Shown: piece after piece, positions 5,359-61,868 of the stretch | Position numbering within the stretch: position 1 is the stretch's first letter | Layout: each line of letters opens with the position of its first letter | Source of the DNA: an uncultured Gemmatimonadaceae bacterium | GTDB lineage: Bacteria; Gemmatimonadota; Gemmatimonadetes; Gemmatimonadales; Gemmatimonadaceae | Direction: 5' to 3' | NCBI GenBank assembly: GCA_963790305.1 | Contig: CAWBOC010000009.1 | Span: 256,001 to 320,000, forward strand | DNA length: 64,000 nt | Program-made: the position numbers and the translations under genes | Notes under the pieces: model-generated | What the model was told of the DNA's origin: nothing | What the model saw: only the letters and a program-made list of their open reading frames with translations | Databases searched by the model: none

Positions 5359-5404
5359 GCGTTAGGCGCGACGGCGGCCGGGCGCCCGTTGGGCCGGCCG
5401 CCGC

Positions 5405-5899
5405 TCAGCCTTCGGCTTCGTCGAGATCCTCGTCGAGGTCCGCATCCACCGCCGCTTCGACGCGACCGCGGCGTCCGCGCGACTCCCGGGCGACGTCAGC
5501 GCCCGCCTGGTAGGCGGCCTTGCTCTCGGCGATGCGCCGCTCGAGGTCTTCGCGCGCCTGATGCGCCGCTTCGCGCCCCGCCTCGATGGCGCTCGCGGCC
5601 TGGCGGCGCTTGAGCTCGAGCGCCGAGCGGGCCGCCTCGAGCTTGTCCTCGACGGTGCGGCGCGCGTGCTCGTACCGGTCGGTGACGTTGTCGGCCAGCT
5701 CACCCGCTTTTTCGCGCGCCGCGCGTTTCACCTTGCGCGCCTCGCGCCGCAGCCGGCGGCGTGTCTCCAGCCCGGAATCGGGCGCGAGCAACAGAGCCAC
5801 CCCCGCCCCTAGCGCGATCCCGACCAGGAATGAGCCGAAGCTCCCACTGGTCCGCTCAATGACTACGTAGGCTTCGTCGTCGTACTCGTGTCTCGACAT
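5405..5899 (-). CDS. YtxH domain protein
   Basis: FLVGIALGAGVALLLAPDSGLETRRRL followed by coiled coil. Confidence 0.88.
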   Translation of the reverse strand: MSRHEYDDEAYVVIERTSGSFGSFLVGIALGAGVALLLAPDSGLETRRRLRREARKVKRAAREKAGELADNVTDRYEHARRTVEDKLEAARSALELKRRQAASAIEAGREAAHQAREDLERRIAESKAAYQAGADVARESRGRRGRVEAAVDADLDEDLDEAEG

Positions 5900-5911
5900 G
5901 TGTGCGCTCTC

Positions 5912-16669: not shown

Positions 16670-17847
16670 CGGCGGCGATCACGATCGAGCGCGCTCGTCT
16701 GTGGGTCATCGCGCTCCCCCTCACGGTGCCCTTCGCCATCAGCGGCGGCGTCATGCACGTTCGCCGATCCCTCATCGTCGAGCTCGGCACCAGCGATGGG
16801 GCGACAGGTTTCGGTGAGAGCGCTCCCTTCGAGCTTCCCTTCTATTCGTCGGAAACGCTCGAGAGCGCGCGCTGGCTCCTCACGAGCGTTCTGCTTCCGC
16901 GCCTGATCGGCCGCACCCTCGACAACCCGCTGGCTGCCGATGGGATCCTCCGTGCGGGAGTTCGGGGAAACCCCTTCGCGCGCGCTGGTGCGGAAACGGC
17001 GGTCTGGGATCTGTTCTGCCATCGACGAGGCGTGCGGATGCTGGATCTCCTGGTCAATGCCCTGCGCACCATGGGCGTCGACGAGCGGCATCTTGCGCCC
17101 CGTCCTCAGGTGACGTGCGGGGTCGCGCTCGGGATTCCTGAAGATGGGGCACCCGTTACGCTGGCTCGCTGGACTCGTGAGGCGCTGGCGCAGGGCTACC
17201 GGCGTGTCAAGATCAAGATCCGGCCGGGTTGGGACGTCGAGCCGATACGGGCCGTTCGCGAGGTGCTCAAGACGGCCGCGCGCCCCGTGCTACTTTGGGC
17301 CGACGCGAACGGATCGTACGACCTCGACGGCGACGCGGATGCGTTGCGTGTCATTGATGCGGAAGGACTCCGCTTCATCGAGCAGCCGCTGCAGCACGAC
17401 GACCTCGTCGATCATGCCGCCCTGGCGAAGCGACTTCGGACTCCGGTCTGTCTCGATGAATCCTTGCGCGACGCGCGGTGGGCGCGTCATGCGCTCGAGC
17501 TCGGTGCCTCACGCATCTGGAACATCAAGGTGCAACGGTTAGGCGGCCTCGCCGAAGCCCTGCGGGTGTACGCTCTCGCTGCGGCGAACGACGTCGAGCT
17601 GTGGGGCGGCACCATGCCAGAAACGGGAATTGGCGCGCGCGCGATCCTCGCGCTGGGCGCGCTGCCGCGCTTCGTGTACCCGAGCAATGTCGAGCCGAGT
17701 GACCGGTGGTACGCATCAGGAACGGATCCCTTTCCGCTCGTCATGACTGCGGACGGGACGATGCCGGTGCCGAGTGAGAAGGGGATATCGACGTTAGGCG
17801 TGGGCGACCGTCTGCGCGAGCACGCAACGGTCGTATGGAGCTCGTGA
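16666..17847 (+). CDS. o-succinylbenzoate synthase / N-acylamino acid racemase (enolase superfamily)
   Basis: RVKIKI, ADANGSY, FIEQPL, CLDESL, NIKVQR, WGGTMPETGIG; TTG start overlaps the upstream TGA. Confidence 0.85.
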   Translation: MTAAITIERARLWVIALPLTVPFAISGGVMHVRRSLIVELGTSDGATGFGESAPFELPFYSSETLESARWLLTSVLLPRLIGRTLDNPLAADGILRAGVRGNPFARAGAETAVWDLFCHRRGVRMLDLLVNALRTMGVDERHLAPRPQVTCGVALGIPEDGAPVTLARWTREALAQGYRRVKIKIRPGWDVEPIRAVREVLKTAARPVLLWADANGSYDLDGDADALRVIDAEGLRFIEQPLQHDDLVDHAALAKRLRTPVCLDESLRDARWARHALELGASRIWNIKVQRLGGLAEALRVYALAAANDVELWGGTMPETGIGARAILALGALPRFVYPSNVEPSDRWYASGTDPFPLVMTADGTMPVPSEKGISTLGVGDRLREHATVVWSS

Positions 17848-17884: not shown

Positions 17885-19609
17885 CTACTGACCTCGGAGC
17901 GCCTGCGCCGAGTAGAGCCGCCCGCCGATCGACACCCATCGCACCGCGGACGGCGACTCGGGGATGCCACGCAGCGTGCCCTGGACGATGACGAAATCGG
18001 CCGGATCTCCTTCGCGCAATACGCGCGCGACGACGGTGTCGCTGGATGAGAGCAGACGCGGCGCGAGACCGCCATCACGATCGAGGCCCGCTTGCACCTC
18101 TCGCGTCGTCGCGTCGTCCTGCACCGCCAGCCGCATCGCGACAATGCCCCGTGCGAGCGCGCCTGCGCCCCAGCCAAGATCGGACACACTCCATCCGTCG
18201 GCGCGAACACCGGGGATCACCGTGAGCCCGGTGCCCCGCACCACGGGAACGCCCTTCTCGACCTTCACTTGGGCACGGCTCCCGATGCGCGCGATGCGCC
18301 CATCCTCGACGAGGAGGACAGCGTTGCGCCGTGGCCCATCGGAAACGCCATCGAGCACGGTCGCTCCAACAATGGCAAAGCGATCGGACCGGGTCGGCTT
18401 CACATCGTCGGCCGCATCGCGCACCAGTCGCAGCGCATCGCGGCGCGCCAATGCGAGCAGGTAGGGCATCGCCGCCTCCCAACCTTCTCGCAACGCGAAC
18501 GTTCCCGTCATTCCGCCCAATGAGGCGATGAGGCCCCCGGTCGTATCGGCCCAGAGCGTTCGGCGTCCCCATCCCGACCCACTCGCTCCAATGCGCTCGA
18601 GGATGATGCGCCGATCACCAATGAGTACCGAGTCGCGGCCGACCACCGTTAGGCTCACGGCCGAGTGTCCGGGGATGGCGAGGCTCGTTGGCCGACTCGA
18701 CCGATTCCACCGGCGCAACAGTCCCCCCCACGGCGAAACGGCCGGCGATTCCGGGAGCACGAAGAACCCCGACGGTGTCTTCACGGTGCGCGCGGTCGAG
18801 CCCGTGCCAATGCGAGTGCGAGCGCCAAGCACCGTCACCGTCGCACCCTCGTCGCCTTCGACCTCGAGCCGTCGCGGGATGTAGCTCGAGTCGGTGCGCA
18901 GGGTGACGAGGAGCGGTTTCGCTGAGCTCGCTGCCGACTCCACCCGCGCAATGATGGCCAGCGAGTCCTTGCCACGCACGAGCTCCCACCATTCGCGCGC
19001 CACGCCCTTGCCGCCGACATAGTGCCGGAGCGTACCACGTTCCTCGACATGAATCGAAGCACTGAACGGCACGTTCCGGCGAAGAGAATCACCTGCCAGC
19101 ACCGGGGCAGCGGCGTCGCATGCCACTCGCCACATCGTCACGTCGGCGGTCTGGACCTGCCGCTCGAAGTCCCACGTCGTTTCGGCGATACCGCGCAGCG
19201 TGTCGCCGCGGTGATCGAGTGACATGTTCACGCCGCTGAACCCCGTCGTCCACCGGAGCTGGATGCTGTCCGCCCGGCCCATGTTCCACCATGAATAGCG
19301 ATGCACGCTGGGCGTCGCGCCGGGCGCCGGGCGCAGCAAGAGATTGCGTCGCTCGTATGGACGCGTTCCGATCGTCGAATCGATCAGGACGCGCGAGGGC
19401 GGCGTCACGATGCGCTCGTCGGGACCCAGCATCAGGGTCGGCGTCCAGGCGCCCATCCGGACCTCCCAGCATCCGACCACGTCCGGCCAACTGGCGAGAG
19501 GCGCTGGAGCCACCCGCGCTGGGGCGACCTCGATGGGCTCGCGGGGTCCGCAGGCAATCGACGCCGCTGCGGTGGTCAACGCGAGTAGATAGCGCGTGCG
19601 CGTCAACAT
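17885..19609 (-). CDS. Multidomain lipoprotein ending in a truncated amidohydrolase-like module
   Basis: Lipobox-like SIAC; AIVGATVLDG...DGRIARIG...TVIPG and EGDPADFVIV...VSIGG. Confidence 0.65.
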   Translation of the reverse strand: MLTRTRYLLALTTAAASIACGPREPIEVAPARVAPAPLASWPDVVGCWEVRMGAWTPTLMLGPDERIVTPPSRVLIDSTIGTRPYERRNLLLRPAPGATPSVHRYSWWNMGRADSIQLRWTTGFSGVNMSLDHRGDTLRGIAETTWDFERQVQTADVTMWRVACDAAAPVLAGDSLRRNVPFSASIHVEERGTLRHYVGGKGVAREWWELVRGKDSLAIIARVESAASSAKPLLVTLRTDSSYIPRRLEVEGDEGATVTVLGARTRIGTGSTARTVKTPSGFFVLPESPAVSPWGGLLRRWNRSSRPTSLAIPGHSAVSLTVVGRDSVLIGDRRIILERIGASGSGWGRRTLWADTTGGLIASLGGMTGTFALREGWEAAMPYLLALARRDALRLVRDAADDVKPTRSDRFAIVGATVLDGVSDGPRRNAVLLVEDGRIARIGSRAQVKVEKGVPVVRGTGLTVIPGVRADGWSVSDLGWGAGALARGIVAMRLAVQDDATTREVQAGLDRDGGLAPRLLSSSDTVVARVLREGDPADFVIVQGTLRGIPESPSAVRWVSIGGRLYSAQALRGQ

Positions 19610-27027: not shown

Positions 27028-27041
27028 GGCGGCCTAACGCA

Positions 27042-41396: not shown

Positions 41397-42851
41397 CTAT
41401 GACATCCAGTTCACACCAGCCTCGCGATTCCACTTCGTCGTCATCTTCTTCGCCTGCGTCCAGAACTCGATCGATCCGCGCCCGGTGATGTCCCCGACGC
41501 CGAACTTCGAATCGTTCCAGCCGCCGAAGGAGAACGGCTCACGCGGCACCGGAACGCCCACGTTGACGCCGACCATTCCCGCGCTCGCGCGCTCCATGAC
41601 ATAGCGCGCCATCCCCCCGCTCTCGGTGAACACGGAGGCCGCATTCCCGTACGGCGACGCGTTCTCGATCGCGATCGCCCTGTCGACATCGGGCGCACGC
41701 ACGATCACGAGCACGGGGCCGAACACTTCTTCCTGCGCGATGCGCATCTCGGGCGTCACGTAGTCGATGATCGTCGGTCCCAGATAGTAGCCACCTTCCC
41801 GGCCGGCCACCGTGGTCTTTCGGCCGTCGACGATCACCTTCGCACCCGCCGCCTCGGCCTCAGCGATATACGACTCGATGCGCTTCTTCGCCTCGGCGGA
41901 GATCACGGGCCCCAGATCCTTGCCCGCCACCATGCGGCTGGCCACCGCCTTCATGCGGTCGATGATGTGATCACTGGTCGAGACGGCGACCATGACCGAC
42001 GCGGCCATGCACCGCTGCCCCGCACACCCCGACATGGAGGCGACGATGTTCGTCGATGCCATCTCCGGATCGGCATCGGGAAGGACGATGAGGTGGTTCT
42101 TGGCGCCGCCTAACGCCAGGCAGCGCTTGAGCGCCGCGGTCGAGCGGCGATAGACGATCTTCGCCGTCTTGGTCGAGCCGACGAAGCTCACCGCCGCGAT
42201 ACCCGGGTGGTCGCAGATCGCCTCGACGGCGTCCTTGCCGCCGTGCACCACCTGAAAAACCCCTTCGGGAAGTCCCGCTTCCGCCAGGAGCTCGGCAATG
42301 CGCCCCGCGCTCAACGGCACGAGCTCCGAGGGCTTGAGGATCAGGCAGTTGCCGAGCGCGATCGCGTTGGGGATCGACCAGTTCGGCACCATGTTCGGGA
42401 AGTTGAACGGCGTGATCGCGGCGACGACACCCACCGGAAAGCGCTCAATGCGGCACTCGACACCCCTGCTGACTTCGAGCACCTCTCCCGGAGCGATCTG
42501 CGGAAGCGAACACGCAAACTCGGTGAGCTCGGCGGACTTGAGGACCTCGGCCCGCGCTTCGCTGACGATTTTTCCATTCTCCTCGGTGACCAGCGCCGCG
42601 AGGTCATCAATGTCGCGCTCGAGCAGCGTCTTGTACCGGTAGAAGATCTGGACGCGCTCCTTGATCGGCGTCGCTGCCCAGGCGGGAAACGCCGCCTTCG
42701 CGGAGCGAACGGCGGCGTCGACGTCGTCAGCGGCCGAGAGCGGGACCCGCGAAATGACTGCGCCGCTGCTCGGGTCGTACACGTCCAGCAGCGGGCGATC
42801 CGCGGTCACGAAGGAGCCGCCGACGTAGTTCCGGACTTCGGGATACTTCAT
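41397..42851 (-). CDS. mmsA: CoA-acylating (methyl)malonate-semialdehyde dehydrogenase
   Basis: ITPFNFP, KPSE, FVGST, GGAKNH, GCAGQRCMA, EEVFGP, GVNVGVPVP. Confidence 0.93.
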   Translation of the reverse strand: MKYPEVRNYVGGSFVTADRPLLDVYDPSSGAVISRVPLSAADDVDAAVRSAKAAFPAWAATPIKERVQIFYRYKTLLERDIDDLAALVTEENGKIVSEARAEVLKSAELTEFACSLPQIAPGEVLEVSRGVECRIERFPVGVVAAITPFNFPNMVPNWSIPNAIALGNCLILKPSELVPLSAGRIAELLAEAGLPEGVFQVVHGGKDAVEAICDHPGIAAVSFVGSTKTAKIVYRRSTAALKRCLALGGAKNHLIVLPDADPEMASTNIVASMSGCAGQRCMAASVMVAVSTSDHIIDRMKAVASRMVAGKDLGPVISAEAKKRIESYIAEAEAAGAKVIVDGRKTTVAGREGGYYLGPTIIDYVTPEMRIAQEEVFGPVLVIVRAPDVDRAIAIENASPYGNAASVFTESGGMARYVMERASAGMVGVNVGVPVPREPFSFGGWNDSKFGVGDITGRGSIEFWTQAKKMTTKWNREAGVNWMS

Positions 42852-43386: not shown

Positions 43387-45599
43387 TGAACGCGGTGCCG
43401 CACGATGCCGAAGGACAATGACTGTGCGGGCACCGCCCGCCCGGACGGATCGCGCCCCTGCACGACCGCCCGGTACACTCCGCTGGCGATCGGCGCTCCA
43501 GCCTCGTTGACCAGATTCCAGGTCAGCGATGGCTGGTCCCCAGCAGGCAGAGCGCGGACGAGCGTGCCATCCGGCTCGAGTATTTGCACGAGCCCTCCGG
43601 GCGGCAGGTTGGCGAAGACGAGACCGGGAGTCTCGGTGGGCCCGGTGATGCTCAGCCGTACCGCCCGAGGACCGCGACTCCGCACCGGCAATGACGTGAT
43701 CGGAGAGCCAAGGCTACTGACGCCGATCACGACAGTGCCTCGCGTCCGGACCTCATGCAACGGAGACAGGGCCTCGGCGAGCGCCGGATCCAGGTGCACC
43801 GCCTGCTGAAATGCGCTCGACGCTTCCCGAAGACGCCCCTGATCCGCGAGCAGCGTTCCGAGGGTGAAGTGCGCCAGAGGCAGGCTTGGCTGCTCGGCAA
43901 GCGCGCGACGATACTCCTGCTCGGCGTCGTCGCGCCGACCCTGGGCTTGCAGGAAGTCGGCGTAGTCGGCGCGAATCCACGCCAGCGCCGGCTGCAGGGC
44001 AAGGGCGCGGCGATAAAGCGAGTCAATGACCGCGGGAGCCCGCCCGGCGCGCTCGTACGACTGCGCCAGGGCGCGCAGCCGATCGGGCCGATTCGAGTCG
44101 GCCCGCACCGCCTGCTCGAGTGCGCGAATGGCCTCATCGTTTCTGCCGAGCTGCTGATAGGCTACGCCGAGCAGAAAGTGTGCTTCCCCTCGCGTCGTGT
44201 CGGTTCCGAGGGCGCGGTGGAGTGCAGCGGCGCCGCCGGCAAGCGCACTGGCATCGGTGGCACGGGCTGCATAGACGATCTGCCCCATGCCGCCGTACAC
44301 CGCGGCGTCGGGCCCGTTCTTGTCCCGCTCGAAATACGCCTCGATGAGTTGGTCCGTCGACTGCCTAACGGGCGCCGCTGCCGACCCTGGCGCCACGACT
44401 CGAATCCAGTGGTCGGTGAACGTTCCGTGGGGGACGGCGCGTTCCTTCACACGGGGCATATGGCAGCTTGCGCAGTCCGCCCCGGCGCTGTGGTCGGCGC
44501 GCGCCGGTGAACGCTCGAATCGCTCGGCCAGGGCCGCCGCCGCATGGCAGCCAAGACAGGGTTGGTTACGCGCCGCGGAGTCCGGCGGTGGACGGTGCGG
44601 GTTGTGGCAGATTGCGCACTCGAGCGGGCGCGAGGTGGCGCGCGTCGCGAGGAAGCAGGCGCTTTGCCGCAGGCGATCGGCGTGGGATACGATGTCGATG
44701 CTCCCCGCCACCTTGAAGAACGCCCACTGCTCGCGCAGCGGCTGCGAGGGAAGGTAACTGAAGGCGTCCTTTCCCTCACGCAGGACCGTCACTGGCGTGT
44801 GCACGTGACATTGCTCGCACACGTCCAGCCGGCGCGCGAGAGGAAGTCGCGCCGGATTTACGATCGTATTGTCGAACGTGGTGTCGCCGTCCACCGTCGC
44901 GCGTCGCTGACCGACGTGAAGCGCCCCGGGCCCATGGCATCGCTCGCATCCGATCCCGGGGCGGAGCTCGGCGTACTTGCCCTCGAGAAATGGAAATGGC
45001 CGCGGATAGCTCGAGTGACAGGCGATGCATCGATCGGGCATGACACGATCGAAGCGCGCGTTGTTCAGCTCGTACCCGGGACTGAAATCCCATCCATGCT
45101 GTCGATACCAGGTGAGCGGCAACTGGAACAGCCGTCCGTTCTCCTCGGTAAAGTAGGTGCGTGCGACCACCCCGCTCCCCATCACGTAGTCCATGCGCCG
45201 GCGCTGCTCATGGATGCGCTTCCCGCCGGCGCCGAGAATGAGCTCGACCTGGTACAGCTGACCGCCGTCATCGACGACGGAGTAGTGGAATCCCGTTGGG
45301 CGGTGCACGAGCGCCGTGTCGAGCGTGGTCTCGATACGATCCGCCGGCGTCCAGCGATGAAACGACCGCGACATCGCATGTTGGTCGTACGCCGCTGCTT
45401 CGGCGCTGTGACAGCTCTCGCAGGCCGCGTCACCGACATAGTCGGTGGGGGCACTGACGTTTCGAAAGACCGGCGATGGCTCGTCAGGCAGGTCCGGCGG
45501 CACGTCCGTCCGCGACGAGCGGTCGCATGCGGTGATTGCCGCTGCGGCAAGGCACAGTGAAACGAGGAGCGCCTTGACTCTCGGGCGGCGGAACGTCAC
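43383..45599 (-). CDS. Multiheme cytochrome c lipoprotein (7 CxxCH) with TPRs and a C-terminal Ig-like domain
   Basis: Lipobox ITAC; CESCH, CIACH, CERCH, CEQCH, CAICH, CLGCH, CASCH; TPR repeats. Confidence 0.85.
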   Translation of the reverse strand: MTFRRPRVKALLVSLCLAAAAITACDRSSRTDVPPDLPDEPSPVFRNVSAPTDYVGDAACESCHSAEAAAYDQHAMSRSFHRWTPADRIETTLDTALVHRPTGFHYSVVDDGGQLYQVELILGAGGKRIHEQRRRMDYVMGSGVVARTYFTEENGRLFQLPLTWYRQHGWDFSPGYELNNARFDRVMPDRCIACHSSYPRPFPFLEGKYAELRPGIGCERCHGPGALHVGQRRATVDGDTTFDNTIVNPARLPLARRLDVCEQCHVHTPVTVLREGKDAFSYLPSQPLREQWAFFKVAGSIDIVSHADRLRQSACFLATRATSRPLECAICHNPHRPPPDSAARNQPCLGCHAAAALAERFERSPARADHSAGADCASCHMPRVKERAVPHGTFTDHWIRVVAPGSAAAPVRQSTDQLIEAYFERDKNGPDAAVYGGMGQIVYAARATDASALAGGAAALHRALGTDTTRGEAHFLLGVAYQQLGRNDEAIRALEQAVRADSNRPDRLRALAQSYERAGRAPAVIDSLYRRALALQPALAWIRADYADFLQAQGRRDDAEQEYRRALAEQPSLPLAHFTLGTLLADQGRLREASSAFQQAVHLDPALAEALSPLHEVRTRGTVVIGVSSLGSPITSLPVRSRGPRAVRLSITGPTETPGLVFANLPPGGLVQILEPDGTLVRALPAGDQPSLTWNLVNEAGAPIASGVYRAVVQGRDPSGRAVPAQSLSFGIVRHRVQ

Positions 45600-45779: not shown

Positions 45780-47117
45780 GTGACGGAGCTCGCCCGCCGC
45801 CTCGGCGTCTTCGATGCCACCATGATCGTGATGGGCGGCATCATTGGCGCCGGCATCTTCATCAGCCCGTACGTCGTCGCGCGACACGTCAACACAACGC
45901 CGCTCATCCTCGGGGCATGGGTCGCGGGCGGTGCCATCGCGCTCGCCGGTGCCTTCGTGTATGCCGAGCTCGCGGCCCTGCGACCGGAAGCGGGCGGCGT
46001 GTACGCGTATCTCCGGGATGCCTTTCATCCCATCGTCGCATTCCTGTTCGGCTGGACGCTCCTCCTCGTAGTGCAGGCGGGAGGAATGGCGGCGGTCGCG
46101 GTGACCTTCGGTCTGTACGTGAGGGATCTCACCGGCATCGCGCTTTCGCCGACCACGCTCGCCGTGGGGGCACTGGTCGCCCTCACGATCATCAACTGCT
46201 TTGGGGTTCGCACCGGCGCGAACGTGCAGAACACGTTCATGGTGCTGAAGATCGTCGCCATCGGGGCATTGGTGACGATCGGATGGCTCGCGGTGGGAAC
46301 GGCGCCGCCCACGCCCGAGGTCGCGCGAGCGACCGGCTTCGGCGCGGCGATGGTTCCCGTACTCTTCGCCTACGGCGGATGGCAGACCGCCAGCTTCGTC
46401 TCCGAGGAAATGCGGGATACCCAACGCGACCTGCCCCGGGCCATGCTCTGGGGGATCATCGGTGTCGTCGTCCTGTACCTGGCAGCGAACCTCGTGTACG
46501 CGTTGGTGCTGAGCCCGGCCGGGCTCGCCGCAACGACCACGCCCGCCTCGGAGGTCATGCGCCGCGCCATCGGCGAGCGAGGCGCCCGCTTCATCGCGTT
46601 AGGCATCGCCATCTCGACGATCGGCTACCTCAGCCAGGGCATGTTGACCGCGCCGCGCGTCTACTTCGCCATGGCGCGCGACGGCGTCTTTTTCTCGAAG
46701 GTGGGCTGGCTTCATCCGCGAACACGCGCGCCGGTCTACGCCATCGCTCTTCAGGGCGTCTGGGCGGTCGCGGTCGCGTTGTCAGGCCGGTACGAGCAGA
46801 TCCTGAACTATGTCGTGGCGATCGACGCGATCTTCTTCGGGCTCACGGGCGTGGCGCTCATCGTCTTCCGACGACGTGAGTCTCGCGAGGCAGGCTCGAG
46901 ACGATTCCGTACCCCCGGTCACCCCTGGACGACGATCCTCTTCGTCGCCGCCTTCTGGATTGTCGCCTTCAACACCGTGCTGCAGTTTCCGACGTCGGCT
47001 GGCATCGGTGTCCTGGTGCTTTTGGCCGGGGTTCCGGTCTACCTGTGGTGGTCCAGGCAGCGCGTCAGGCTGGCGGCTCGATCCTCAGCGGCACCACCGT
47101 CGTCCCCCAGTGCATAA
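45780..47117 (+). CDS. APC-family amino acid permease
   Basis: GGIIGAGIF, YAELAA, FAYGGW, PRVYFAMARDG. Confidence 0.92.
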   Translation: MTELARRLGVFDATMIVMGGIIGAGIFISPYVVARHVNTTPLILGAWVAGGAIALAGAFVYAELAALRPEAGGVYAYLRDAFHPIVAFLFGWTLLLVVQAGGMAAVAVTFGLYVRDLTGIALSPTTLAVGALVALTIINCFGVRTGANVQNTFMVLKIVAIGALVTIGWLAVGTAPPTPEVARATGFGAAMVPVLFAYGGWQTASFVSEEMRDTQRDLPRAMLWGIIGVVVLYLAANLVYALVLSPAGLAATTTPASEVMRRAIGERGARFIALGIAISTIGYLSQGMLTAPRVYFAMARDGVFFSKVGWLHPRTRAPVYAIALQGVWAVAVALSGRYEQILNYVVAIDAIFFGLTGVALIVFRRRESREAGSRRFRTPGHPWTTILFVAAFWIVAFNTVLQFPTSAGIGVLVLLAGVPVYLWWSRQRVRLAARSSAAPPSSPSA

Positions 47118-47610
47118 CCAGCTCGCCAGTCAGTCCGTCCACGTCCGGGAAGTAGAACGTCAACAGCTCCACCGGAGGCCCTTCGCGCACGGTAGTCTCG
47201 ACGCGCAGAACGTCACTGCCGCTGGGATACGGCAGATGCCACACCGGATGCGCGCTGCTGAAGATGACGGTCCAGCGGGTTTGGTCGGGAATCATCGAGA
47301 TGCTGTACGTGCCGGCGGCTAGCGCCTGGCCGTTGACGCGCACCGCGCTGCTGAACGTGATGCTCGTGGCCGTGTCGGCGCCAGGAGTCCACGGTCGCCC
47401 CCAGGGCACGAGGGCGCCAAACAGCTCGCGTCCGCGTGCGCCTGGCCGGCTGTACTTCACTTCGATCCGCGTCGGGCCTAACGCCTGCGTCACCGAAGCT
47501 TGCTGACTCCGTCGCGGGCGGCGTGTCTCCTGAGCGCATAGCGACGACGTCAGCATGAGCCCGGCGAACGGGGCCAGAACACCAATCGTCCGAATGCCGA
47601 CGGCCGGCAT
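47065..47610 (-). CDS. DUF2911 domain secreted protein
   Basis: YSRPGARGRELFGALVPWGRPWTPGAD, LAAGTYS. Confidence 0.85.
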   Translation of the reverse strand: MPAVGIRTIGVLAPFAGLMLTSSLCAQETRRPRRSQQASVTQALGPTRIEVKYSRPGARGRELFGALVPWGRPWTPGADTATSITFSSAVRVNGQALAAGTYSISMIPDQTRWTVIFSSAHPVWHLPYPSGSDVLRVETTVREGPPVELLTFYFPDVDGLTGELVMHWGTTVVPLRIEPPA

Positions 47611-48163: not shown

Positions 48164-50011
48164 ATGATCACTTTCACGCTCTTCGCCCTCGCGCTGGTGA
48201 TGTCTCCCGCGCTCTTGGCACAGCATGCCTTCGGCCACCACACCGAGGCGCTCGAGATCCGATTTGCACGAACGGACCCGGTAATCGCCTACGTCCTGCG
48301 TCTCGATTCCGCCGACCTTTCCGGATTCGATGTCGAGATGCGGATTCGAAGCGCACCCGACACCTTTCGCGTCGCCATGGCGGCGCACCCGGAGTACGAC
48401 GACCGCTTCTCGCGGTTCGTCGAGGGAATGCGCGTCGAGACGCCGCGCGGCGCCGGCGAGATCGTCCGCCTCGACACCGCGCTATGGCGCATCCGTGCAC
48501 CCGGAGGCGAAGCCACCCTTCGATATCGCATTCGACTTCCCGCTCCCGAAGGTGGTCAGCGCGCTTCGTGGCGACCGTTCATGTCGCTCAGCGGTGCCTT
48601 GAGTGGTGGACCACATGCCTTCATGTACCTCGTGAGTGCTCCCCTCGCGCCGGCACACGTGAAGGTCGACGTGCCGCCCAGCTGGGAGATAGCGACCGGG
48701 CTCGTCCCCACCTCCGATCCGCACACGTTCTTCGCACCGACTGCCGAATTCCTCATCGACTCCCCAATCCTCGCCGGCCGGTTTCGCAACTGGCGCTTCG
48801 ACGTCGATGGGACGCCGCACCGCGTGGTCTATTGGCCTCTGCCCGACGCCACCCCGTTCGACACGACCGCCTTCGTCTCCTCGCTGGAGCGCCTGAGCCG
48901 TCAGGCGGTCGCGCTCTTCGGGCGCGCCCCATATCGCGAGTTCACGTTTCTCTTTCAGGACGGCGCGTTCGGCGGCCTCGAGCACGCCAATTCGGCGACG
49001 TTAGGCGCCCCGAGTGCCGAGCTCGCCCGCGGCCAGGCGGAGCTGCTGGGTGAGGCTGCGCACGAGTACCTCCACGCGTGGAACCTCGTCCGCATCCGGC
49101 CAGCGGAGCGCGGGCCAATCAGCTACCGGCAGACCGGGCAGACACGAGGTCTGTGGTGGAGCGAAGGCCTTACCATGTTCTACGCGGACCTGCTCGCTCG
49201 GCGCGCCGGGATCCCCACCGTCGATTCGACACGCATCGCGCACGTCGAGCGGCTCATCGCCCGCTATCGCTTCAGTCCCGGCAACGCCCGAATCTCTGCC
49301 GAGCGGGCGGGCCTCGCCGAGTACGGCGCGCCACCCGGATCGCTTGGTGACTACGATCCGAGTCCGCACACCCAGGGAGAGCTCCTCGGGACAATCCTCG
49401 ACCTGGTGATTCGAGAGGCGACGCACGATCGTCGCTCCATCGACGACGTCATGCGGCTCATGATGCAACGGTACTCCGGGAGAACGGGATTCACCGGCCG
49501 TGACATCGAGCGCGCTGTCACGGAAGTCTGTGGCTGCAGCGTTCGCCCGATATTCGACGCGCATGTCCGCGGTGCCGCGCCGATCGACGTGAACCGATAT
49601 CTCGGCGCCGTCGGGCTGCGAGCCGACGTCACCGACGAACCGGTGCGGAACGCGGAGGGTGAGGCCACCCCCGACCTGCGAGTGTTCGGCTGGCAGCCGG
49701 AGGAGGGACGGGTCGCGCTGCTCATCAACAATCCCGAGAGCGCCTGGGGTCGCGCCGGCCTTCACACCGGCGATCGTCTCATATCGATCGACAATCAGCC
49801 AGTCGCCACATTACGAGAGCTTCGGGCCGCGGTCCTGCGCGCACGCATTGGCGATACCGTGATCGTCCGGGTGCAGCGGCCTAACGGTCCCTTCCGCGCG
49901 TCGGTGATGGTCACGGGGTACAGCTACCCGCGGGTGCGACTCGAGGAGAAGCCCAATGCCACCCCGCTCCAACGACAGCGGCGCGAGCGCTGGATCAACG
50001 CGTCACCGTGA
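48164..50011 (+). CDS. M61 glycyl aminopeptidase with PDZ domain
   Basis: GGLEHANS, AHEYLHAWN, WWSEGLT, AGLHTGD. Confidence 0.9.
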   Translation: MITFTLFALALVMSPALLAQHAFGHHTEALEIRFARTDPVIAYVLRLDSADLSGFDVEMRIRSAPDTFRVAMAAHPEYDDRFSRFVEGMRVETPRGAGEIVRLDTALWRIRAPGGEATLRYRIRLPAPEGGQRASWRPFMSLSGALSGGPHAFMYLVSAPLAPAHVKVDVPPSWEIATGLVPTSDPHTFFAPTAEFLIDSPILAGRFRNWRFDVDGTPHRVVYWPLPDATPFDTTAFVSSLERLSRQAVALFGRAPYREFTFLFQDGAFGGLEHANSATLGAPSAELARGQAELLGEAAHEYLHAWNLVRIRPAERGPISYRQTGQTRGLWWSEGLTMFYADLLARRAGIPTVDSTRIAHVERLIARYRFSPGNARISAERAGLAEYGAPPGSLGDYDPSPHTQGELLGTILDLVIREATHDRRSIDDVMRLMMQRYSGRTGFTGRDIERAVTEVCGCSVRPIFDAHVRGAAPIDVNRYLGAVGLRADVTDEPVRNAEGEATPDLRVFGWQPEEGRVALLINNPESAWGRAGLHTGDRLISIDNQPVATLRELRAAVLRARIGDTVIVRVQRPNGPFRASVMVTGYSYPRVRLEEKPNATPLQRQRRERWINASP

Positions 50012-51531: not shown

Positions 51532-53005
51532 ATGCGAAACGCCTTGTGTCACCTCTCGCTTGCTGCGGCCGTGCTTATCGCGGCCGAGGGACTCCCACGC
51601 ACCGCGAACGCCCAGGCAGCGCCTGCCGCTTCCGAGCGCGCGTTGCGCGACCTCGTTCGGGTCATGAATCTCGGCCACCGTGACTCCCTCGAGCGCTTTG
51701 TGCGTGAACGGTTCGTCGTCGCAGGTCCGGGAAGCGTTCCGGCGGCTGATCGCGTGGAGCGCCTCTCCCGTCTGCGCTCCATCTTCGGCGAGCTCACGCT
51801 TCGCGCGATCGACTCCGTCGCGCCCGCACGTGCGTCAGGCGTTGCCCAGTCGGCTCGCACGGAAGCGTGGCGCCGACTCGGGGTGATCATGGATACGACA
51901 CCACCGGGTCGCATTGTCCGCGTTTCGATCGCACCGGCCACCGCACCGGACGCACCGACACGTCGCCTTACCGATGCTCAGGTCGTCGAGCAGCTCAGTG
52001 CGTACATGGACCGGTTGGCTCGCCGCGATGTGTTCTCGGGCAGTGTACTGCTCGCCAAGGCAGGCAAGCCGCTCTTCAACGCCGCCTATGGCGAAGCGAA
52101 CAAGGACTTCGGCGTCAAGAATACTGTCGACACCAAGTTCAACCTCGGCTCCATGAACAAGATGTTCACGTCGGTCGCCATCATGCAGCTCGTCGAGGCG
52201 GGCAAGCTCTCGCTCGACGACACCCTGGGGAAGTTTCTCCCCGCGGGATCGATGCGCGCCGACGTGCTGGCGAAGGTGCGCGTGAAGCACCTCCTGACGC
52301 ACACGTCGGGGCTCGGCAGCTACTTCTCGCCGCGCTGGGACAGTCTTTCGCGCTCGATGTTCCGAAGCGTCGACGACTGGATGCCTCTGGTGAAGGATGA
52401 GACGCTCGCTTTCGAGCCCGGCACGCGATGGTCGTACAGCAACACCGGAATGCTGGTGCTCGGGAAGGTGATCGAGTCCGTCAGCGGGAAGGACTATTTC
52501 CAGTACGTGCGCGAGCGGATCTTTACGCCGGCGGGGATGACGTCGACCGACTCGTATGAGCTCGACCTGGTGACGAAGAATCTTGCCGTCGGGTACGAAC
52601 GCGAGGAAACCGCCGCCGGCCCGCGGTATCGCAACAACATCTTCCAGCACGTGATTCGCGGCGGTCCGGCGGGCGGCGGGTATTCGACCGTCGGCGATCT
52701 CACGCGATTCGCGGCGGCGCTTGCAAAGTGGGAAGCTCGTGAGCCGCGATGGTATGAGGATGCTCACGACGCCGAAGCCGGAGCTCGGCTCGCCCGATTA
52801 TGGCTTTGGGTTTGGCGTGATTGATGGGGGGCGGATCGTGGGCCACAGCGGCGGGTTCGAGGGGATCAGCGCCCAACTCGACATCTATCTCGTGGACGGC
52901 TACACGATGGCCGTCATGGCGAATTACGGAGGCGCGGCGCAGCCAGTCATCGAAAAGGTGCGTACGCTTCTCTTCGCGGGACGTAAGGAGACGGCGTCAC
53001 GTTAG
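51532..53005 (+). CDS. Beta-lactamase-family serine hydrolase, frameshift near 52722
   Basis: SxxK (GSMNKMF), YSN, LLTHTSGL; GHSGG motif continues in another frame. Confidence 0.88.
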
Positions 53006-53078
53006 GCGCACAGTTCCACCGAGACATGGCCGAGCGGCGGCGTGGGTCCCATCACCACGCCGCCGTTCGCCGTTCTCG

Positions 53079-54014: not shown

Positions 54015-55227
54015 TCACCTCGCCGTCCGAAGGCGGTCGCCGATGACGGCGAGCAGCGTTCCATCGTCGCCTCCGATCTCCCAGATCATGATGCCGCCGA
54101 GCCCGTGCGCCCGTACGTACTCGGCCTTGTGGCCGATGGACTCGGCGTCATCGTAGGTGATGAACACGCCGAGCGAGTCGTTATGCAGCCAGGGCACCAG
54201 TGCCTCGGGGTGCCAGAAGCGAGTGAATCCCTGTGCGGTGAGGTTTCTCGACGCGATCTGTCGGTAATCGAGGCCGGTTGCCCACTCGCGCGGCGCCGGC
54301 GACGCGGCCTGGAACAACCCACCGTTGGCGCCGTGAACGCCCCCGTACGCGCGCCCATAGAACGGCGCTCCGATGACAATCTTCCCCGACGGGACGCCGC
54401 CCCGACGGTAGACCGCGACCGTGGAATCGATGTTGTAGTACGGCGTCGGATCGTTCGTCGCCGCGTGGAGGGGTGCGTTGAAGTGCGCGATCGCCGAGCC
54501 GGAGTGGTAGTCGTACGTCATCACGTTGAACCAATCCAGCAACGGGGCGATGCGATCGAGCTCCAGGCTCCCGAATGAGCCGCGCGCCAGCGGCCGTGGC
54601 GGCCGTAAGGAGATAGCGGCGCCCGTCGCGCGCGCCCTCAGCGTCGAGCTGCCGGCGCAGCTCGGCGAGCAGAAGCGTGAAGTTCTGCCGGTCCTCCGGC
54701 CGAGTGACATTCTCCCTGGCTCCCCCGAACACCGGATACTCCCAGTCAATGTCGAATCCGTCGAACAGTCCGGGCCATCCGCGCAGGAACAGCTCGATGC
54801 CGGATGCGGCGAAGCGCTGTCGGGCTTCCGGGGTCAGGGCCGCATCGGAGAAATTCACCGAGCGCGTCCATCCGCCGATGGCGACGAGGAACTTCAGATG
54901 CGGGTACCGCTCCTTGAGTGCGCGCAGCTGGCCGAAGTTTCCGCCCCTCGCCGCGGCACTCCCGCTTCCGCATCGCCCGGCATCGAGGCACGGATCCTCG
55001 AGCGCTATGGTGCCGTCGGGTCCTACGTTGGCGAAGGCGTAGATGACGTGCGTTAGGCGGTCGCCAGGCAGCTCGGCGATCCTCGTCCCCTTGGAACGAA
55101 CGCCCCACGACGCCAGATAGGCGACGACCCTTGGACTCTCGGTCCGAGGTGTGGATGGGGGAGCCGGCGACCTCGCCGTCGCGCACGCCATGAGGGCGAG
55201 CGCGAGCACGGAGAAGGAGTACCGCAT
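54015..55227 (-). CDS. GH18 chitinase-like lipoprotein, frameshift near 54578
   Basis: AIGGW, FDGFDIDWEYP; NVMTYDY, GAPFYGR, GGIMIWE in the second frame. Confidence 0.9.
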
Positions 55228-58642: not shown

Positions 58643-59200
58643 ATGCGTTCCGTGCTGCGTACTGCCCTTCCCGCCCTCGCGATGCTCGCCGCGCTCGCCG
58701 CTGCCGCCGAGGCGCAACATCACGCCTCGACCGTCGCCGCGGATCTGCGCGCAGATATCGAGCAGGTCGAAAAGAAGATGCTCGACCTCGCACGCGCGAT
58801 TCCCGAGGACAAATACGGCTGGCGTCCCGGCGCTGGCGTTCGCTCCATCGGCGAAGTCGTGATGCATGTCGCCGCGGACAACTATCTGATTCCGGCGGCG
58901 ATTGGATTTCCGGCCGACCCCGCCACCGGCATCAAGGGCAACGACTACAACACCGCCGTCGCGTTCGAGAAGCGCACCGCCAACAAGGCGGCGGCGATCG
59001 CCGAGCTCGAGAAGTCGTTCGCGTTCGTGAAGAAGTCGCTCGACGCCTCGGGCGACAAGCTTGCTCAGCCGGTGTCGATGTTCGGGATGAACCTCACGTC
59101 GCAGAAGGCGTGGATCATGGCGACGACGCACCTGCACGAGCATCTGGGCCAGCTCATCGCGTACGCGCGGAGCAACGGCATCGCCCCACCCTGGAGCTGA
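58643..59200 (+). CDS. Secreted DinB family protein
   Basis: SD GGAGG; LARAIPEDKYGWRP, HLHEHLGQLIAYAR. Confidence 0.88.
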   Translation: MRSVLRTALPALAMLAALAAAAEAQHHASTVAADLRADIEQVEKKMLDLARAIPEDKYGWRPGAGVRSIGEVVMHVAADNYLIPAAIGFPADPATGIKGNDYNTAVAFEKRTANKAAAIAELEKSFAFVKKSLDASGDKLAQPVSMFGMNLTSQKAWIMATTHLHEHLGQLIAYARSNGIAPPWS

Positions 59201-59268
59201 CCGCTCGAGGTCAGGCGTTAGGCTCCCGGTCGGCTTTCACGGCGGCCGGGAGCGGCTCCAGACGCTCG

Positions 59269-61868
59269 GTGATCCCGCCTGGGTCGATCGCGCGCGTTGC
59301 GCTGGCGGCTGGGCTCCTCGCGGCACCCTGCACCGCTCAGAGCATCGAGGCCGCCCGCATCCTCGGCACACCGCCACGCCTCGATGGGCGTCTCACGGAG
59401 GACCTCTGGTCCACGGCGCAGCCGCTGGCGGGGTTCCTCCAGCGCGACCCGGACCAGGGCGCACCCGCGACCGAACGTACCGAGGTGCGCTTCGCCTACG
59501 ACGACGACGCGCTCTACATCGGGGCGCGTATGTTCAGCACATCACCCAACGCCATTCGCGCGTTGGTCACACGCCACGATCGTGAAGGAAGCTCCGAGCA
59601 GCTGCTCGTCTCCCTCGATACACACCTTGATCGCCGCACCGCCTATACCTTCGCCGTCACGCCCGCCTCCGTCCGCATCGACTACTACCACTCATCGGAT
59701 GAGGAGGATAGCCGTGACAACGGCTTCAACCCGGTGTGGCAGGCGCAGGCCCGCATCGATTCCCTCGGATGGACGGCGGAGATGCGCATTCCATTTTCGC
59801 AGCTGCGCTTTACCGCGGCAGAGGTGCAGGTGTGGGGAGTGAACGTCGTCCGTAGTGTGCCGGCGAAGAACGAACGCAGCTATTGGGCGCTGATCCGCCG
59901 TGATGAGCCAGGGTGGGCGTCGCGCATGGGAGCGCTGGTGGGGATTCGCGACGTTCGCCCCTCGCGGCGCATCGAGATCTCCCCCTACCTCGCCGTGGAT
60001 TCGCGGTTGGACAGCGACATCGACCGGGCAGATCCCTTCGCGAGGGAGCACGAGACGAACGCGCGCGTGGGAGCGGATCTCAAGCTTGGGCTGGGCCCGA
60101 GCTTCACGCTCGACGTCACCCTCAATCCCGATTTCGGCCAGGTCGAGGCAGATCCCGCCGAGGTCAACTTGAGCGCCTTCGAAACGTTCTTCGACGAGCA
60201 ACGGCCGTTCTTTGCCGAGGGTGCGGAGCTGCTCGAAGGGCGCGGCCTCTTTTACTCGCGACGCATTGGCGCGCCGCCCCCTGGGGATCCCGACGCCGAC
60301 TACGCCGAGCCTCTCCAGCACACGTCCATCCTCGGCGCCGCCAAGCTCACCGGCCGTACGCAGTCGAAGCTCGCTGTCTCCGCGCTGGCCGCGGTGACGC
60401 AGCGAGAGCGGATTCGCACCTTCAATGCGACCACGCGAACGTTCGGCGACGCCGTTGTGGCGCCGCTCGCCGCCTACGCCGCGGTCGGGGCGCAGGCAGC
60501 AGTTTGGCGCAAGCGGGTCGACGTTAGGCGGAGTGCTGACGGCCGTGCACCGCGACGTCGATGAAGGATCCCCACTGGCTGGCGCGGTGTCACGCGATGC
60601 ATTCTCCGGCATCGTCGAGGGACGCGTGCGCTGGGCGGGAGGCAGGTATGACGCGAGCGCGCACGTGGGCTTTACCCACGTTCGCGGCGACTCCGGCGCC
60701 ATCCTCGAGCTGCAGCGTTCGTCCCGACGGTACTGGCAGCGCCCCGACGCGTCACACGTCGAGATCGACCCGCGACGCTTGACGCTATCCGGCACGATGC
60801 TCGGCATCAATCACAGCAAGCTCGCCGGCGCGCACTGGCTGTGGGACATCGACTACTGGCAGGAGGCGCCGGGCCTCGAGCCGAACGACATCGGGGCCTT
60901 CGGCAGCGTCGACGATCGCGGCGTTGCCTGGGACCTGATCTATCGGGAGACGCGGCCGAAGGGGTGGTACCGATCGTACTCGATGGCGATCGGGTCGAGC
61001 GTGGAGTGGAACTTCGACGGCGTGCGCCGCGGGTCCGAGGCATTTCTGGAATTCAACACCACGTTCGCGAACTACCTTCGCTTCGGCAGCGACTTCTGGC
61101 ATAACCCGCGGGGATACTCCGATGACCTCACGCGCGGCGGCCCGCTCATGGGGACGGGACGCGCGTGGGGGATGGCATTCGAGCTGGAGGGTCGAGAGGG
61201 TGCGCGCACGGCGTGGAGCGTGGAGCTCGACGGTGAGCGCGAGGAATTCGAATGGATGGTCGGGAGAGCTGCAGGGAGACTTCAGCTTCCATCCGGGGAC
61301 ACAGTGGGAGATCAGCGTCAGCCCCAGCTGGGAGCTGGGCGAGGACCCGCGGCAATACGTGACGACGCTGGATGACGGGCGGCCAGAAACGTTCGGGCAG
61401 CGTTATGTGTTCGCGCGCGTGGAGCGCAGCGAGATCGCAACGCGTGTGCGCGTGAACTACACATTCACGCCGAACCTCACTCTGGAGACGTACGCCGAGC
61501 CGTTCGCGTCGAGCGGCACTTTCTCCCGCTTTGGGGAGCTGCTCGCACCGCGATCGCGCGAGCTGCTCGAGTACGGGACATCCGGAACGACGATCGCGCG
61601 AAACCCGGACGGATCGCACATCGTGACGGTGGGCTCGGACACCCTCGCCATCGCGAACGAAGACTTCAACGTCCGTTCGCTGCGGAGCAACGTCGTGCTG
61701 CGGTGGGAATGGCGGCCGGGGAGCGCGCTCTTTCTCGTCTGGCAGCAGAATCAGGAAGCGGACCGCCCGTTCGGGAGAGTGCGTCCGCGCGACCTGTGGG
61801 ATGCGCTGAGCACGAGCGGCGACAGCTTCTTTGCGGTGAAGATCAGCTACTGGCTGCCGGTGCGTTGA
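59269..61868 (+). CDS. DUF5916 outer-membrane protein with CBM9-like N-terminus, frameshifts near 60496 and 61250
   Basis: PRLDGRL, WTAEMRIPFSQLRF, NPDFGQVEAD, FYSRRIG; C-terminal NVVLRWEWRPGS...KISYW. Confidence 0.85.

Follow-up and report, generated by a model that had tools for sequence, protein, structure and literature searches.

A hyper-abundant octamer spelled like an integron attC core in Gemmatimonadaceae genomes, a candidate self word tied to DNA exchange

The stretch of DNA analysed here (the window, 64,000 nucleotides) belongs to the genome of an uncultured soil bacterium of the Gemmatimonadaceae, designated G000 (its relatives being G010, G016, etc.), and contains 22 exact copies of the octamer CGTTAGGC/GCCTAACG (hereafter the word), 12 of them reading CGTTAGGC (+) and 10 reading GCCTAACG (−), each at the coordinate listed by an initial annotation made from the letters alone. 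By our own gene calls, 16 of the 22 copies are situated in genes. Eight are written as xCG-TTA-GGC, in the genes of an enolase-superfamily protein (17792..17799, +), a Met-zincin (DUF4953; 29390..29397, +; kept in 5/5 aligned genus relatives), a Ser/Thr kinase-TPR protein (30577..30584, −), a cytosine/purine permease (36278..36285, −), an aldehyde dehydrogenase (42108..42115, −; kept in 6/7 aligned relatives), an amino-acid permease (46597..46604, +), a DUF2911 protein (47476..47483, −), and an M61 peptidase (48999..49006, +). Four take the form xxG-CCT-AAC-G, in the aforementioned Met-zincin gene (29931..29938, −; same codons in G016), in a ThiF/rhodanese gene at a conserved K-P-N-V (32961..32968, −; kept in 7/8 genus relatives, and also in G012 and G016, the word-poor G010 and G021 having CCG/CCC instead of CCT), antisense in a minus-strand gene (34210..34217, +), and in the aforementioned M61 peptidase gene (49879..49886, −). 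Two copies of the form xGC-CTA-ACG are antisense in a minus-strand gene (18647..18654, +) and in the aforementioned cytosine/purine permease gene (36455..36462, +), where the relatives have other amino acids, and two of the form xxC-GTT-AGG-C lie in a TPR/cytochrome c gene (44363..44370, −) and a DUF5916 gene (60522..60529, +). The other six fall outside called genes (5360..5367, 53000..53007, 55051..55058, and 59216..59223, all +; 32177..32184 and 27032..27039, both −), the last being placed between two minus-strand genes and kept in 4/5 aligned genus relatives. The frame counts given previously (10/4/3/1, plus one TAG stop and three intergenic copies) are close to ours, the slight differences arising because our gene calls are independent and missed some genes; the TAG-stop copy was not confirmed. 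The one-mismatch copies named at 1106, 17537, 38269, and 50577 are present, represent just 4 of the 48 in the window, and are those in which the TTAG/CTAA centre is intact.

A mononucleotide expectation of 2–3 copies had been estimated for the window, correctly (about 83 copies on each strand of 4.31 Mb, which makes 2.5 in 64 kb), and 100 dinucleotide-preserving shuffles gave 0.90 copies (sd 1.0, largest 4). In the whole G000 genome, 855 copies are present (419 + and 436 −), and the word is the top over-represented 8-mer by z score at Markov orders 1–3, with 40–68 copies expected. The 686 in-gene copies compare with ~40 after a synonymous-codon shuffle within genes and with 27.1 ± 4.3, a 25-fold excess, after a shuffle in which proteins, codon usage, and every dinucleotide were preserved. 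The word occurs in each of the four stop-free frames (333/56/144/153), and 2.6–23% of the peptide contexts able to encode the word do so. The codon TTA is tied to this context, as had been proposed for testing: GGC follows 468 of the 1054 TTA codons of G000, and a G precedes 462 of those 468. The 16.5% of the genome outside called genes holds 169 of the 855 copies, a density similar to that in genes and without intergenic enrichment. The word density climbs with gene GC3, from 1.28 copies per 10 kb to about 2.3, the reverse of what composition predicts. The flanks (±20 bp) of the copies in G000 carry no information, ruling out a longer repeat or mobile element behind them; CGTTAGGC is a stand-alone word without conserved flanks, and differs from its own reverse complement. 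The initial proposal of a non-palindromic, genome-wide, and frame-independent signal at the DNA level, unexplained by coding, is thereby supported, and our literature searches, like the authors of that proposal, found no published description of the word.

At distances of less than about 500 bp, copies of the word repel each other. In G000, the pair ratio climbs through 0, 0.12, 0.18, 0.41, and 0.68 over the successive bins to 500 bp and is ~1 past 750 bp; control words gave 0.8–1.4 in the same analysis, and in the denser genome of G016 the repulsion range is shorter. Close inverted pairs are scarce, the closest pair in G000 being 95 bp apart and only 4 pairs lying within 200 bp against 33.6 expected. 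No periodicity was seen up to 60 kb (pair ratios of 0.82–1.12 in 2-kb bins), within the limits set by the contigs, over which the copies are spread evenly at 1.4–3.0 per 10 kb. A sparse zone (C6:140–343 kb), with 16 copies versus about 40 expected, adjoins a switch of GC skew at about 170 kb, and the two conserved sites there are present as soft variants. The largest gap consists of 54 kb of core housekeeping DNA without an exact copy, which rules out a foreign island; the relatives have 2–4 copies in the 20 kb compared, of which G000 keeps two as soft variants. The uptake sequences of Neisseriaceae (DUS) and Pasteurellaceae (USS) are scarce in atypical or recently acquired DNA; for the word, a 39-kb low-GC region of sugar-nucleotide genes has no copy and the density is lower in low-GC3 genes, but the largest gap, as described, is core housekeeping DNA.

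Abundance of the word is lineage-specific and patchy. In a survey of the phylum, at least 300 copies were found in 18 of 401 genomes (maximum 4469), and G016, a relative outside this sample, has 6360 copies (1.26 per kb). The word is enriched in 9/9 genomes of the genus of G000, is lacking in most genera of Gemmatimonadaceae (the word-poor G010 has 0 copies in 400 kb), and varies in abundance 30- to 100-fold from one related genus to another, as well as inside a single GTDB genus, with identical spelling in distant genera and no dialects. The contrast in genus g44, considered as proof of rapid gain, is weakened by the DNA identity of just 66–73% between the word-poor G292 and G240. Existing copies are retained: in 8 genus relatives with 81–87% identity, 46 of 71 site–genome pairs are kept versus 24% of all 8-mers, and in a second genus 12/17 and 11/17 are kept versus 18%. 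Alignment of codons reveals that substitutions, both synonymous and nonsynonymous, create the copies and that indels play no part, by which insertion scars of cassettes at the word sites are ruled out.

The word shares its spelling with part of an integron recombination site. An attC site is an imperfect inverted repeat of 57–141 bp with the structure R''-L''...L'-R'. In cassette arrays of the same order, which adjoin integrase genes or integrase pieces, the R' core GTTAGGC together with the conserved 5' C of attC is identical to CGTTAGGC, in which 38 of 51 full-length attC matches end (G027:C95, G027:C80, G025:C3), and the chance of such an 8-mer identity is, by simple arithmetic, about 3 in 100,000. 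Furthermore, the word fits GTTRRRY, described in PMC3053210 as the general core of integrons, the inverse core being RYYYAAC. G000 carries an integron integrase itself (448.9 bits), beside which a simple RYYYAAC...GTTRRRY hairpin scan detected no attC array. Unlike attC, the word copies are single, without the R''/L''/L'/R' hairpin or an array (their flanks are not conserved, and none has an inverted partner closer than 95 bp), and are located in conserved housekeeping genes far from the integrase. The tolerated variants differ as well; GTTAGAC closes 6/51 attC matches, yet CGTTAGAC has just 10 copies in G000, whereas the variants enriched in that genome, CGTTAGGT, TGTTAGGC, and CGTTATGC, close 0/51 full-length matches, TGTTAGGC being found at attC only in one match of reverse orientation (R'' side). 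Neither this identity with the R' core nor the short-range repulsion of copies was part of the initial annotation.

Several explanations of the word have to be weighed against these observations. That it simply reflects codon usage, peptide motifs, or a bias in dinucleotides might be suggested by its commonest frame, which encodes the frequent tripeptide (A/S/P/T)-L-G (3208 sites), but the 25-fold excess over the strictest shuffle, the use of four frames and both orientations, the equal density outside genes, and the existence of related genomes of similar composition without copies refute such an artefact, leaving it a virtually nil probability. A polar signal of the Chi or KOPS/AIMS type, acting with RecBCD/AddAB or FtsK, would likewise be an octamer over-represented over the whole chromosome, but the orientation of CGTTAGGC does not follow GC skew (174 + and 163 − copies in bins of positive skew versus 234 + and 264 − in bins of negative skew; Spearman 0.13 for strand difference against skew, p 0.24), and the orientation runs equal expectation on 11/11 contigs tested; we reject this reading as extremely improbable, in agreement with the initial annotation, which had set the word apart from Chi and KOPS and called for this check of replichore polarity. 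Improbable, to a lesser degree, is the conversion of near-cognates into the word by sequence-specific repair or by a process coupled to methylation (VSP-like or HIP1-methylase-like). The great rarity in G000 of one-mismatch words at positions 2, 6 (G>A), and 7 (1–13 copies versus 6–26 expected) might be taken as its signature, but the same words are also scarce in the word-poor G010 (0–7.5 per Mb), so that the rarity is background and unusable as evidence of conversion. MmeI-type enzymes recognise sites that are asymmetric, span six bases, and have adenine in the penultimate place, and the core CCTAAC is shaped like such a site; G000 has an enzyme of this type, its single DNA methyltransferase, the gene of which adjoins that of an SNF2 helicase. 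However, this enzyme is encoded by a vertically inherited single-copy gene in 37/41 genomes, word-rich and word-poor alike, and in its alignment 0 strict columns part rich from poor, while 40% of random partitions do equally well; neither methyltransferase families nor a switch of specificity in this conserved enzyme showed a pattern that follows the word abundance. Patch repair by Vsr and Dcm is not supported either, Vsr being present in 3/41 relatives, in 0 word-rich genomes, and in 0/9 of the genus (the search was positive in control genomes), and Dcm-type methylases (PF00145) in 3/41; the N6_N4 methylase (PF01555) is absent in G000 and G240. Although a precedent exists in HIP1, in which the sites of two orphan methylases are embedded according to PMC13756078, no matching methylase pattern was found for CGTTAGGC, and a repulsion reaching across hundreds of bases is not expected from local conversions that occur independently of each other. 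A drive by repair or by methylation, the latter being one of the mechanisms offered initially, is thus weakened.

The remaining two alternatives invoke a protein that binds the word. Sites of a chromosome-organising or nucleoid protein, each under ordinary selection, would agree with the retention of sites between species, with the spacing of copies over 100–500 bp and their even spread over contigs, and with the sparse zone near the GC-skew switch, which could mean exclusion near the terminus. HIP1-type words show periodic long-range spacing of 10–90 kb. HIP1 itself (GCGATCGC), the hyper-abundant cyanobacterial octamer with a published excess of 15- to 300-fold (PMC5861425, PMC13756078), has been argued to be selected and structural (Xu et al., PMC5861425) and is now linked to transformation (PMC13756078); it resembles CGTTAGGC in lying in genes, in being conserved beyond expectation, in its patchy occurrence, and in a function long unexplained, as described in the same two sources, but it is a palindrome, whereas CGTTAGGC is asymmetric and shows no 10–60 kb periodicity. 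The lack of periodicity, the persistence of two conserved sparse-zone sites as soft variants, and abundance differences that would be odd for a housekeeping architecture protein make the nucleoid explanation unlikely; no candidate nucleoid protein was found. Quite unlikely, too, is that the reader of the word is an integron integrase, or a protein sharing its box specificity, the scattered copies being its docking or secondary sites or the outcome of abortive attC-by-genome strand exchange turning near-cognate sites into the R' box. Such a role would agree with the identity with attC, with the cassette arrays beside integrase genes, and with the integrase of G000. Against it, an integrase above the curated cut-off is found in 11/15 word-rich versus 16/23 word-poor relatives, and integrase presence shows no association with word abundance: the richest genome, G016, has three out-of-frame integrase pieces only, the word-rich G400 has none, nor have G012 and G022, and the word-poor G292 has two or three. 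Besides the differing variants and the lack of attC-like inverted pairs, flank conservation, and indel scars at the word sites, the biochemistry is also discordant, since what the integrase binds is described as a single strand in folded form, bearing extrahelical bases (PMC3053210), and insertion into the genome as requiring only GWT (bioRxiv 10.1101/2022.09.11.507474).

By analogy with DUS, USS, and HIP1, we tentatively consider CGTTAGGC a self word maintained by a drive linked to the exchange of DNA and read by a putative protein, an explanation to which we give a substantial chance, though short of an even one. We infer both DNA exchange as the favouring step and a protein as the reader. 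In the proposed course of events, a sequence-specific candidate protein would read CGTTAGGC as double-stranded DNA in either orientation, and word-bearing DNA would be favoured in exchange between relatives, through preferential uptake or through better survival and recombination of the incoming fragments; word-creating substitutions would therefore be fixed and kept in the resident DNA despite rare codons and, sometimes, amino-acid changes. If one copy per few hundred bases suffices, an extra copy beside an old one would bring no gain, and copies would accordingly come to be spaced apart. In Neisseria, the spacing of DUS (about one per 1.1–1.5 kb) is reported to track the size of conversion fragments, denser genomes having shorter fragments (PMC2397512), and the density of G016 falls in this range. 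Like DUS and USS, CGTTAGGC is a short exact word repeated hundreds to thousands of times, in either orientation and in every frame, runs counter to the codon preferences of the genes that contain it, at times altering amino acids, and is common to related species, with about one copy per kb in the richest genomes and a spacing tied to density. Close inverted pairs of DUS act as terminators in Neisseria. In contrast, CGTTAGGC has only 8 letters without a flanking consensus, forms no close inverted pairs and serves no terminator use, and is very patchy; its lack of intergenic excess and its undialected spelling in distant genera, equal to an integron core, are further differences that count against the DUS-like reading, as do the 54-kb housekeeping gap and the failure to find a receptor candidate. 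The self-word explanation also does not account for the 8/8 identity with the attC R' box. Competence parts are widespread (ComEC and ComEA-type HHH_3 in 41/41 relatives, DprA and secretins in 5/5), but, being equally present in word-poor relatives, they do not explain the patchiness or discriminate word-rich genomes, and the correlation of the word with ComEA or methyltransferase genes that had been suggested was not borne out. A search with the ComP_DUS family gave no match, and none in control genomes either, which makes it uninformative. The earlier interpretation is partly supported; among the three mechanisms it offered, namely uptake, nucleoid or SMC-type protein binding, and methylation-driven accumulation, the first provides the best analogy.

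A bolder extension, which we regard as distinctly doubtful, would make Gemmatimonadaceae a further lineage, after Neisseriaceae, Pasteurellaceae, and possibly cyanobacteria, with a word for recognising self DNA in exchange, borrowed in its spelling from the attC core of integrons; an uptake or recombination machinery tuned to the cassette box might couple transformation to cassette capture and fill the genome with the word as a by-product. Hyper-abundant DNA words are known in few lineages, each informative on self versus foreign DNA, and the present case is a strong one (up to 1.26 copies per kb) in a major, little-studied soil phylum. Its spelling hints at a link between two gene-exchange systems, and its switching on and off between related genera offers natural contrasts for finding the reader. 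In work on Gemmatimonadaceae genomes, the word may also serve as a marker, both in binning and to detect foreign DNA. Clusters of the word on one strand in word-poor genomes, considered as misbinned contigs, proved to be integron cassette arrays, one of which shares its contig with comEC.

The octamer CGTTAGGC, or GCCTAACG on the opposite strand (hereafter the word), is certainly real and maintained by something acting on the DNA itself. All 22 exact copies that the initial annotation had counted in the window (12 plus-strand, 10 minus-strand) were recovered, each exactly where it had been placed, against 0.90 expected and at most 4 found in dinucleotide-preserving shuffles. The genes of the window are ordinary housekeeping ones (recR, ybaB, dnaX, pyruvate kinase, transaldolase, acetate kinase, Ser/Thr kinases, and permeases). 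In the whole source assembly (G000; 4.31 Mb, 66% GC, 13 contigs), of which the window is C9:256001–320000, the two spellings total 855 copies (419 + 436) and rank first among 8-mers by z score under Markov models of orders 1, 2, and 3, which predict 67.9, 39.9, and 44.3 copies, respectively; models of orders 4 and 5 swallow the signal into the 5- and 6-mers of the word itself. Its strict centre is GTTAGG (1547 copies), with 1229 copies of CGTTAGG and 1105 of GTTAGGC. Among its variants in the genome, the end positions accept C or T, and G2 and G7 are strict. The flanks carry no information within 20 bases on each side, and the word is therefore not a piece of a longer repeat.

The claim that protein coding does not explain the word is borne out by shuffling. 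According to the gene calls made for the present analysis (3650 genes, spanning 83.5% of the assembly), the word takes the forms xCG-TTA-GGC (333 times), xxC-GTT-AGG-C (56), xGC-CTA-ACG (144), and xxG-CCT-AAC-G (153), with zero copies in the two stop-giving frames of the called genes and 169 copies outside them. Twenty synonymous-codon shuffles within genes gave 7–21 sense and 16–36 antisense copies (observed: 389 and 297), and the enrichment also stays under a null that keeps all proteins, global codon usage, and all dinucleotides (686 in-gene copies against 27.1 ± 4.3). Nor is TTA used equally elsewhere: 468 of the 1054 TTA codons are followed by GGC, 462 of these 468 being preceded by G. 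Between 2.6% and 22.8% of the peptide contexts able to spell the word synonymously actually do so, and 400 kb of G010, a word-poor relative of similar composition, contains 0 copies.

Copies of the word are retained between genomes beyond the level of their surroundings. When 20 kb of the window was compared with 8 genomes of the same genus (81–87% identity), the word was unchanged in 46 of 71 site–genome pairs, which are not independent because the 8 genomes are kin, as against 24.4% for 8-mer windows overall in those alignments. Identity at third-codon positions in the flanks falls to 0.44–0.68, while every position of the word stays at 0.79 or above. Only 4 copies of the relatives were absent from G000 in the aligned 20 kb, because the window had been chosen as word-rich (22 copies against an average of 12.7). 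In a second genus, at 78% identity, 12/17 and 11/17 copies were kept, compared with 18% for all 8-mers. Codon alignments across genera revealed no indels at any word site. The conserved K-P-N-V of ThiF is written with the rare CCT in the word-rich G000, G012, and G016, and with CCG or CCC in the word-poor G010 and G021; several copies in G016 required amino-acid changes, e.g., I-P-E-A to L-P-N-A.

In line with the strand symmetry noted in the initial annotation, the word is not polarised by replichore. In 50-kb bins, its strand difference correlates neither with GC skew (Spearman 0.13, p 0.24) nor with gene strand (0.10); the skew signal is usable, since it tracks gene strand (0.63). Orientation runs are as expected on all 11 contigs tested, and a Chi- or KOPS-like polar signal is rejected. 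Copies in G000 repel one another at short distance, the observed/expected pair ratio being 0 under 50 bp, 0.12 at 50–100 bp, 0.18 at 100–200 bp, 0.41 at 200–300 bp, 0.68 at 300–500 bp, 0.83 at 500–750 bp, and about 1 beyond 750 bp, whereas three ordinary frequent 8-mers gave 0.76–1.38 at every distance. In G016, the richest relative (183 kb, 230 copies, 1.26 per kb), repulsion is confined to distances under 200 bp (ratios 0.21, 0.28, and 0.55). No periodicity was detected up to 60 kb. Independent local creation of sites would not predict such neighbour interference; a process satisfied by a single copy per fragment would. Four other over-represented 8-mers, TCCGCATT (628 genome copies), AGGCGCTA (324), GGAGTCAG (352), and CTAGAGGC (189), cluster 85- to 300-fold within 50 bp genome-wide and hence belong to repeat elements, unlike CGTTAGGC; in the window, TCCGCATT/AATGCGGA lies at 995, 1009, 1040, 22142, 32147, and 41379, and TAGCGCCT at 29927, 30640, and 47320. 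An intergenic palindromic element of about 105 bp at window positions 35531–35640, with arms of GGTAGTCGAGGTGATCGAGG-type units and 109 BLAST hits in the genome (both orientations counted), resembles a hairpin repeat of the REP or MITE type.

Along the genome, word density climbs with gene GC3, starting at 1.28 per 10 kb and reaching about 2.3, and the word is absent from a 39-kb low-GC region that carries sugar-nucleotide genes. Core housekeeping DNA makes up the longest word-free gap (54 kb; expected number of such gaps, 0.014); relatives carry 20 copies in 155 kb of stretch orthologous to 20 kb of this gap, and G000 holds two conserved sites of the region as CGTTAGGT and CGTTAGGG. The gap is included in a sparse zone at G000:C6:140–343 kb (16 copies against about 40 expected), adjoining a plus-to-minus switch of GC skew at about 170 kb; this pattern, seen on one contig, may reflect a terminus effect. 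Two further words, CGTCAGGC and CGTGAGGC, e.g., at window positions 8010, 8387, and 2033, exceed the protein-, codon-, and dinucleotide-keeping null 2.8- and 1.9-fold in G000, without a clear excess in G016.

Each of the 9 genomes of the genus carries 382–1006 copies, and the 41 nearest genomes comprise 15 with at least 300, 3 with 170–200, and 23 with 65 or fewer; G016 reaches 6360 copies in 5.1 Mb. Across 401 genomes sampled evenly from the phylum, all 18 with at least 300 copies belong to two families (f1 and f2) of one order, and none of those listed as of the same class or phylum exceeds 70; the 41 nearest also include two genomes above 300 from a third family of the order (f3). The independent word-rich clades are g1, g9, g36, g39, g43, g44, g46, g47, and g49 in f1, g75 in f2, and g24 and g26 in f3. 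These tallies include the unpublished genomes G015 (both sets) and G085, G124, and G203 (401 set), all word-poor, and no claim stands on them alone. Within one GTDB genus (g44), three genomes have 3479–4141 copies and G292 only 66, with the hexamer at background level; this contrast is no proof of a fast switch, because G292 is the outlier of the genus (66–73% DNA identity, against 76–81% for the others).

In its strand and frame independence, site retention, neighbour interference, creation by substitution even against the protein sequence, and lineage-specific abundance (here up to one per 0.8 kb), the word resembles the uptake sequences DUS and USS, the spacing of the former following recombination fragment size (PMC2397512); the cyanobacterial octamer HIP1 is a further parallel (PMC5861425; PMC13756078). 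Because these combined features match DUS/USS, we tentatively prefer a drive linked to DNA exchange, acting through a putative reader, although this reading falls short of an even chance. Binding sites of a chromosome protein, maintained by selection, rank next and are rather unlikely. Somewhat less probable still is an integron-linked protein as reader. In the word-poor genomes, copies lie mostly in one-strand clusters with 500–650 bp spacing. The clusters on contig C95 of the relative G027 are cassette arrays, in which each attC has an R'' box GCCTAAC(A), paired L boxes, and the end C-GTTAGGC; the general inverse core and core of integrons are RYYYAAC and GTTRRRY (PMC3053210). A profile built from 20 sites gave 57 hits in three array loci adjoining integrase genes or pieces; 38 of the 51 full-length hits in array orientation end in CGTTAGGC, 6 in CGTTAGAC, and the remainder in single variants, and the word is thus identical in spelling to the R' box of the order's integrons, an agreement with a chance of about 3 in 100,000 and too exact to dismiss. 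However, integrases above the curated cut-off occur in 11/15 word-rich, 1/3 intermediate, and 16/23 word-poor genomes, being absent from G012, G022, and G400, reduced to three out-of-frame pieces in the richest G016, and present as two or three hits in the word-poor G292. Moreover, CGTTAGAC has 10 copies in G000 instead of the approximately 135 that would mirror attC usage, whereas the genome-enriched variants CGTTAGGT (10-fold), TGTTAGGC (8.5-fold), CGTTATGC (6-fold), and GGTTAGGC (5.7-fold) end none of the 51 full-length hits, TGTTAGGC appearing in the attC search solely in a hit of reverse orientation (R'' side). As described in PMC3053210 and bioRxiv 10.1101/2022.09.11.507474, respectively, integrase substrates are folded bottom strands with extrahelical bases, and genomic insertion requires only GWT; the integron integrase as the obvious reader does not fit.

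Least probable of these four readings, and unlikely, is a repair or methylation bias as the source. Vsr was found in 3 of the 41 genomes, none word-rich, by a search positive in its control genomes, and a C5 methylase in 3 of 41; in a five-genome contrast (rich G000, G240, and G016; poor G292 and G010), N6_N4 methylase is absent from the rich G000 and G240. The single DNA methyltransferase found in G000, a 1021-aa Eco57I/MmeI-type adenine enzyme followed by a 739-aa SNF2-type helicase (L200:9022–14367, i.e., G000:C7:233022–238367), is vertically inherited and single-copy in 37/41 genomes of the order, and no column of its alignment splits four rich from seven poor lineages (one poor row being the unpublished G015), 40% of random partitions doing equally well. 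Such conservation is unusually stable for an apparent restriction or defence-type module. Of 478 papers matching the word's two spellings in full text, the 20 listed concerned primers, constructs, nematode telomere work, and similar matters, and nothing on the word was among the matches listed for Gemmatimonadetes uptake sequences or natural transformation, for integrons and attC in Gemmatimonadota, or for uptake sequences and over-represented k-mers.

As for the favoured drive tied to DNA exchange, ComEC and ComEA-type HHH_3 (41/41 genomes each) and DprA and secretins (5/5 each) occur whether a genome is rich or poor in the word, so that DNA uptake is possible, while these genes fail to explain the patchiness. 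Stretches L092+L093 (G027:C95:1–28000) form an extensive chromosomal array of integron cassettes, matched about 34 times by the attC profile, the sites being very uniform and about 100 bp long, on the same contig as comEC. Outside the window, G000:C9:694912–695922 encodes a full-length integron integrase (TIGR02249, 448.9 bits), with same-strand genes reaching as far as this gene; a simple hairpin scan revealed no obvious attC array in its vicinity. The comEA-type gene of G000 (C11:5–103) is truncated by the start of C11, and identical-score secretin hits at G000:C3:186336–186845, near the contig end, and C11:42842–43351 suggest that these two contigs overlap or are duplicated.
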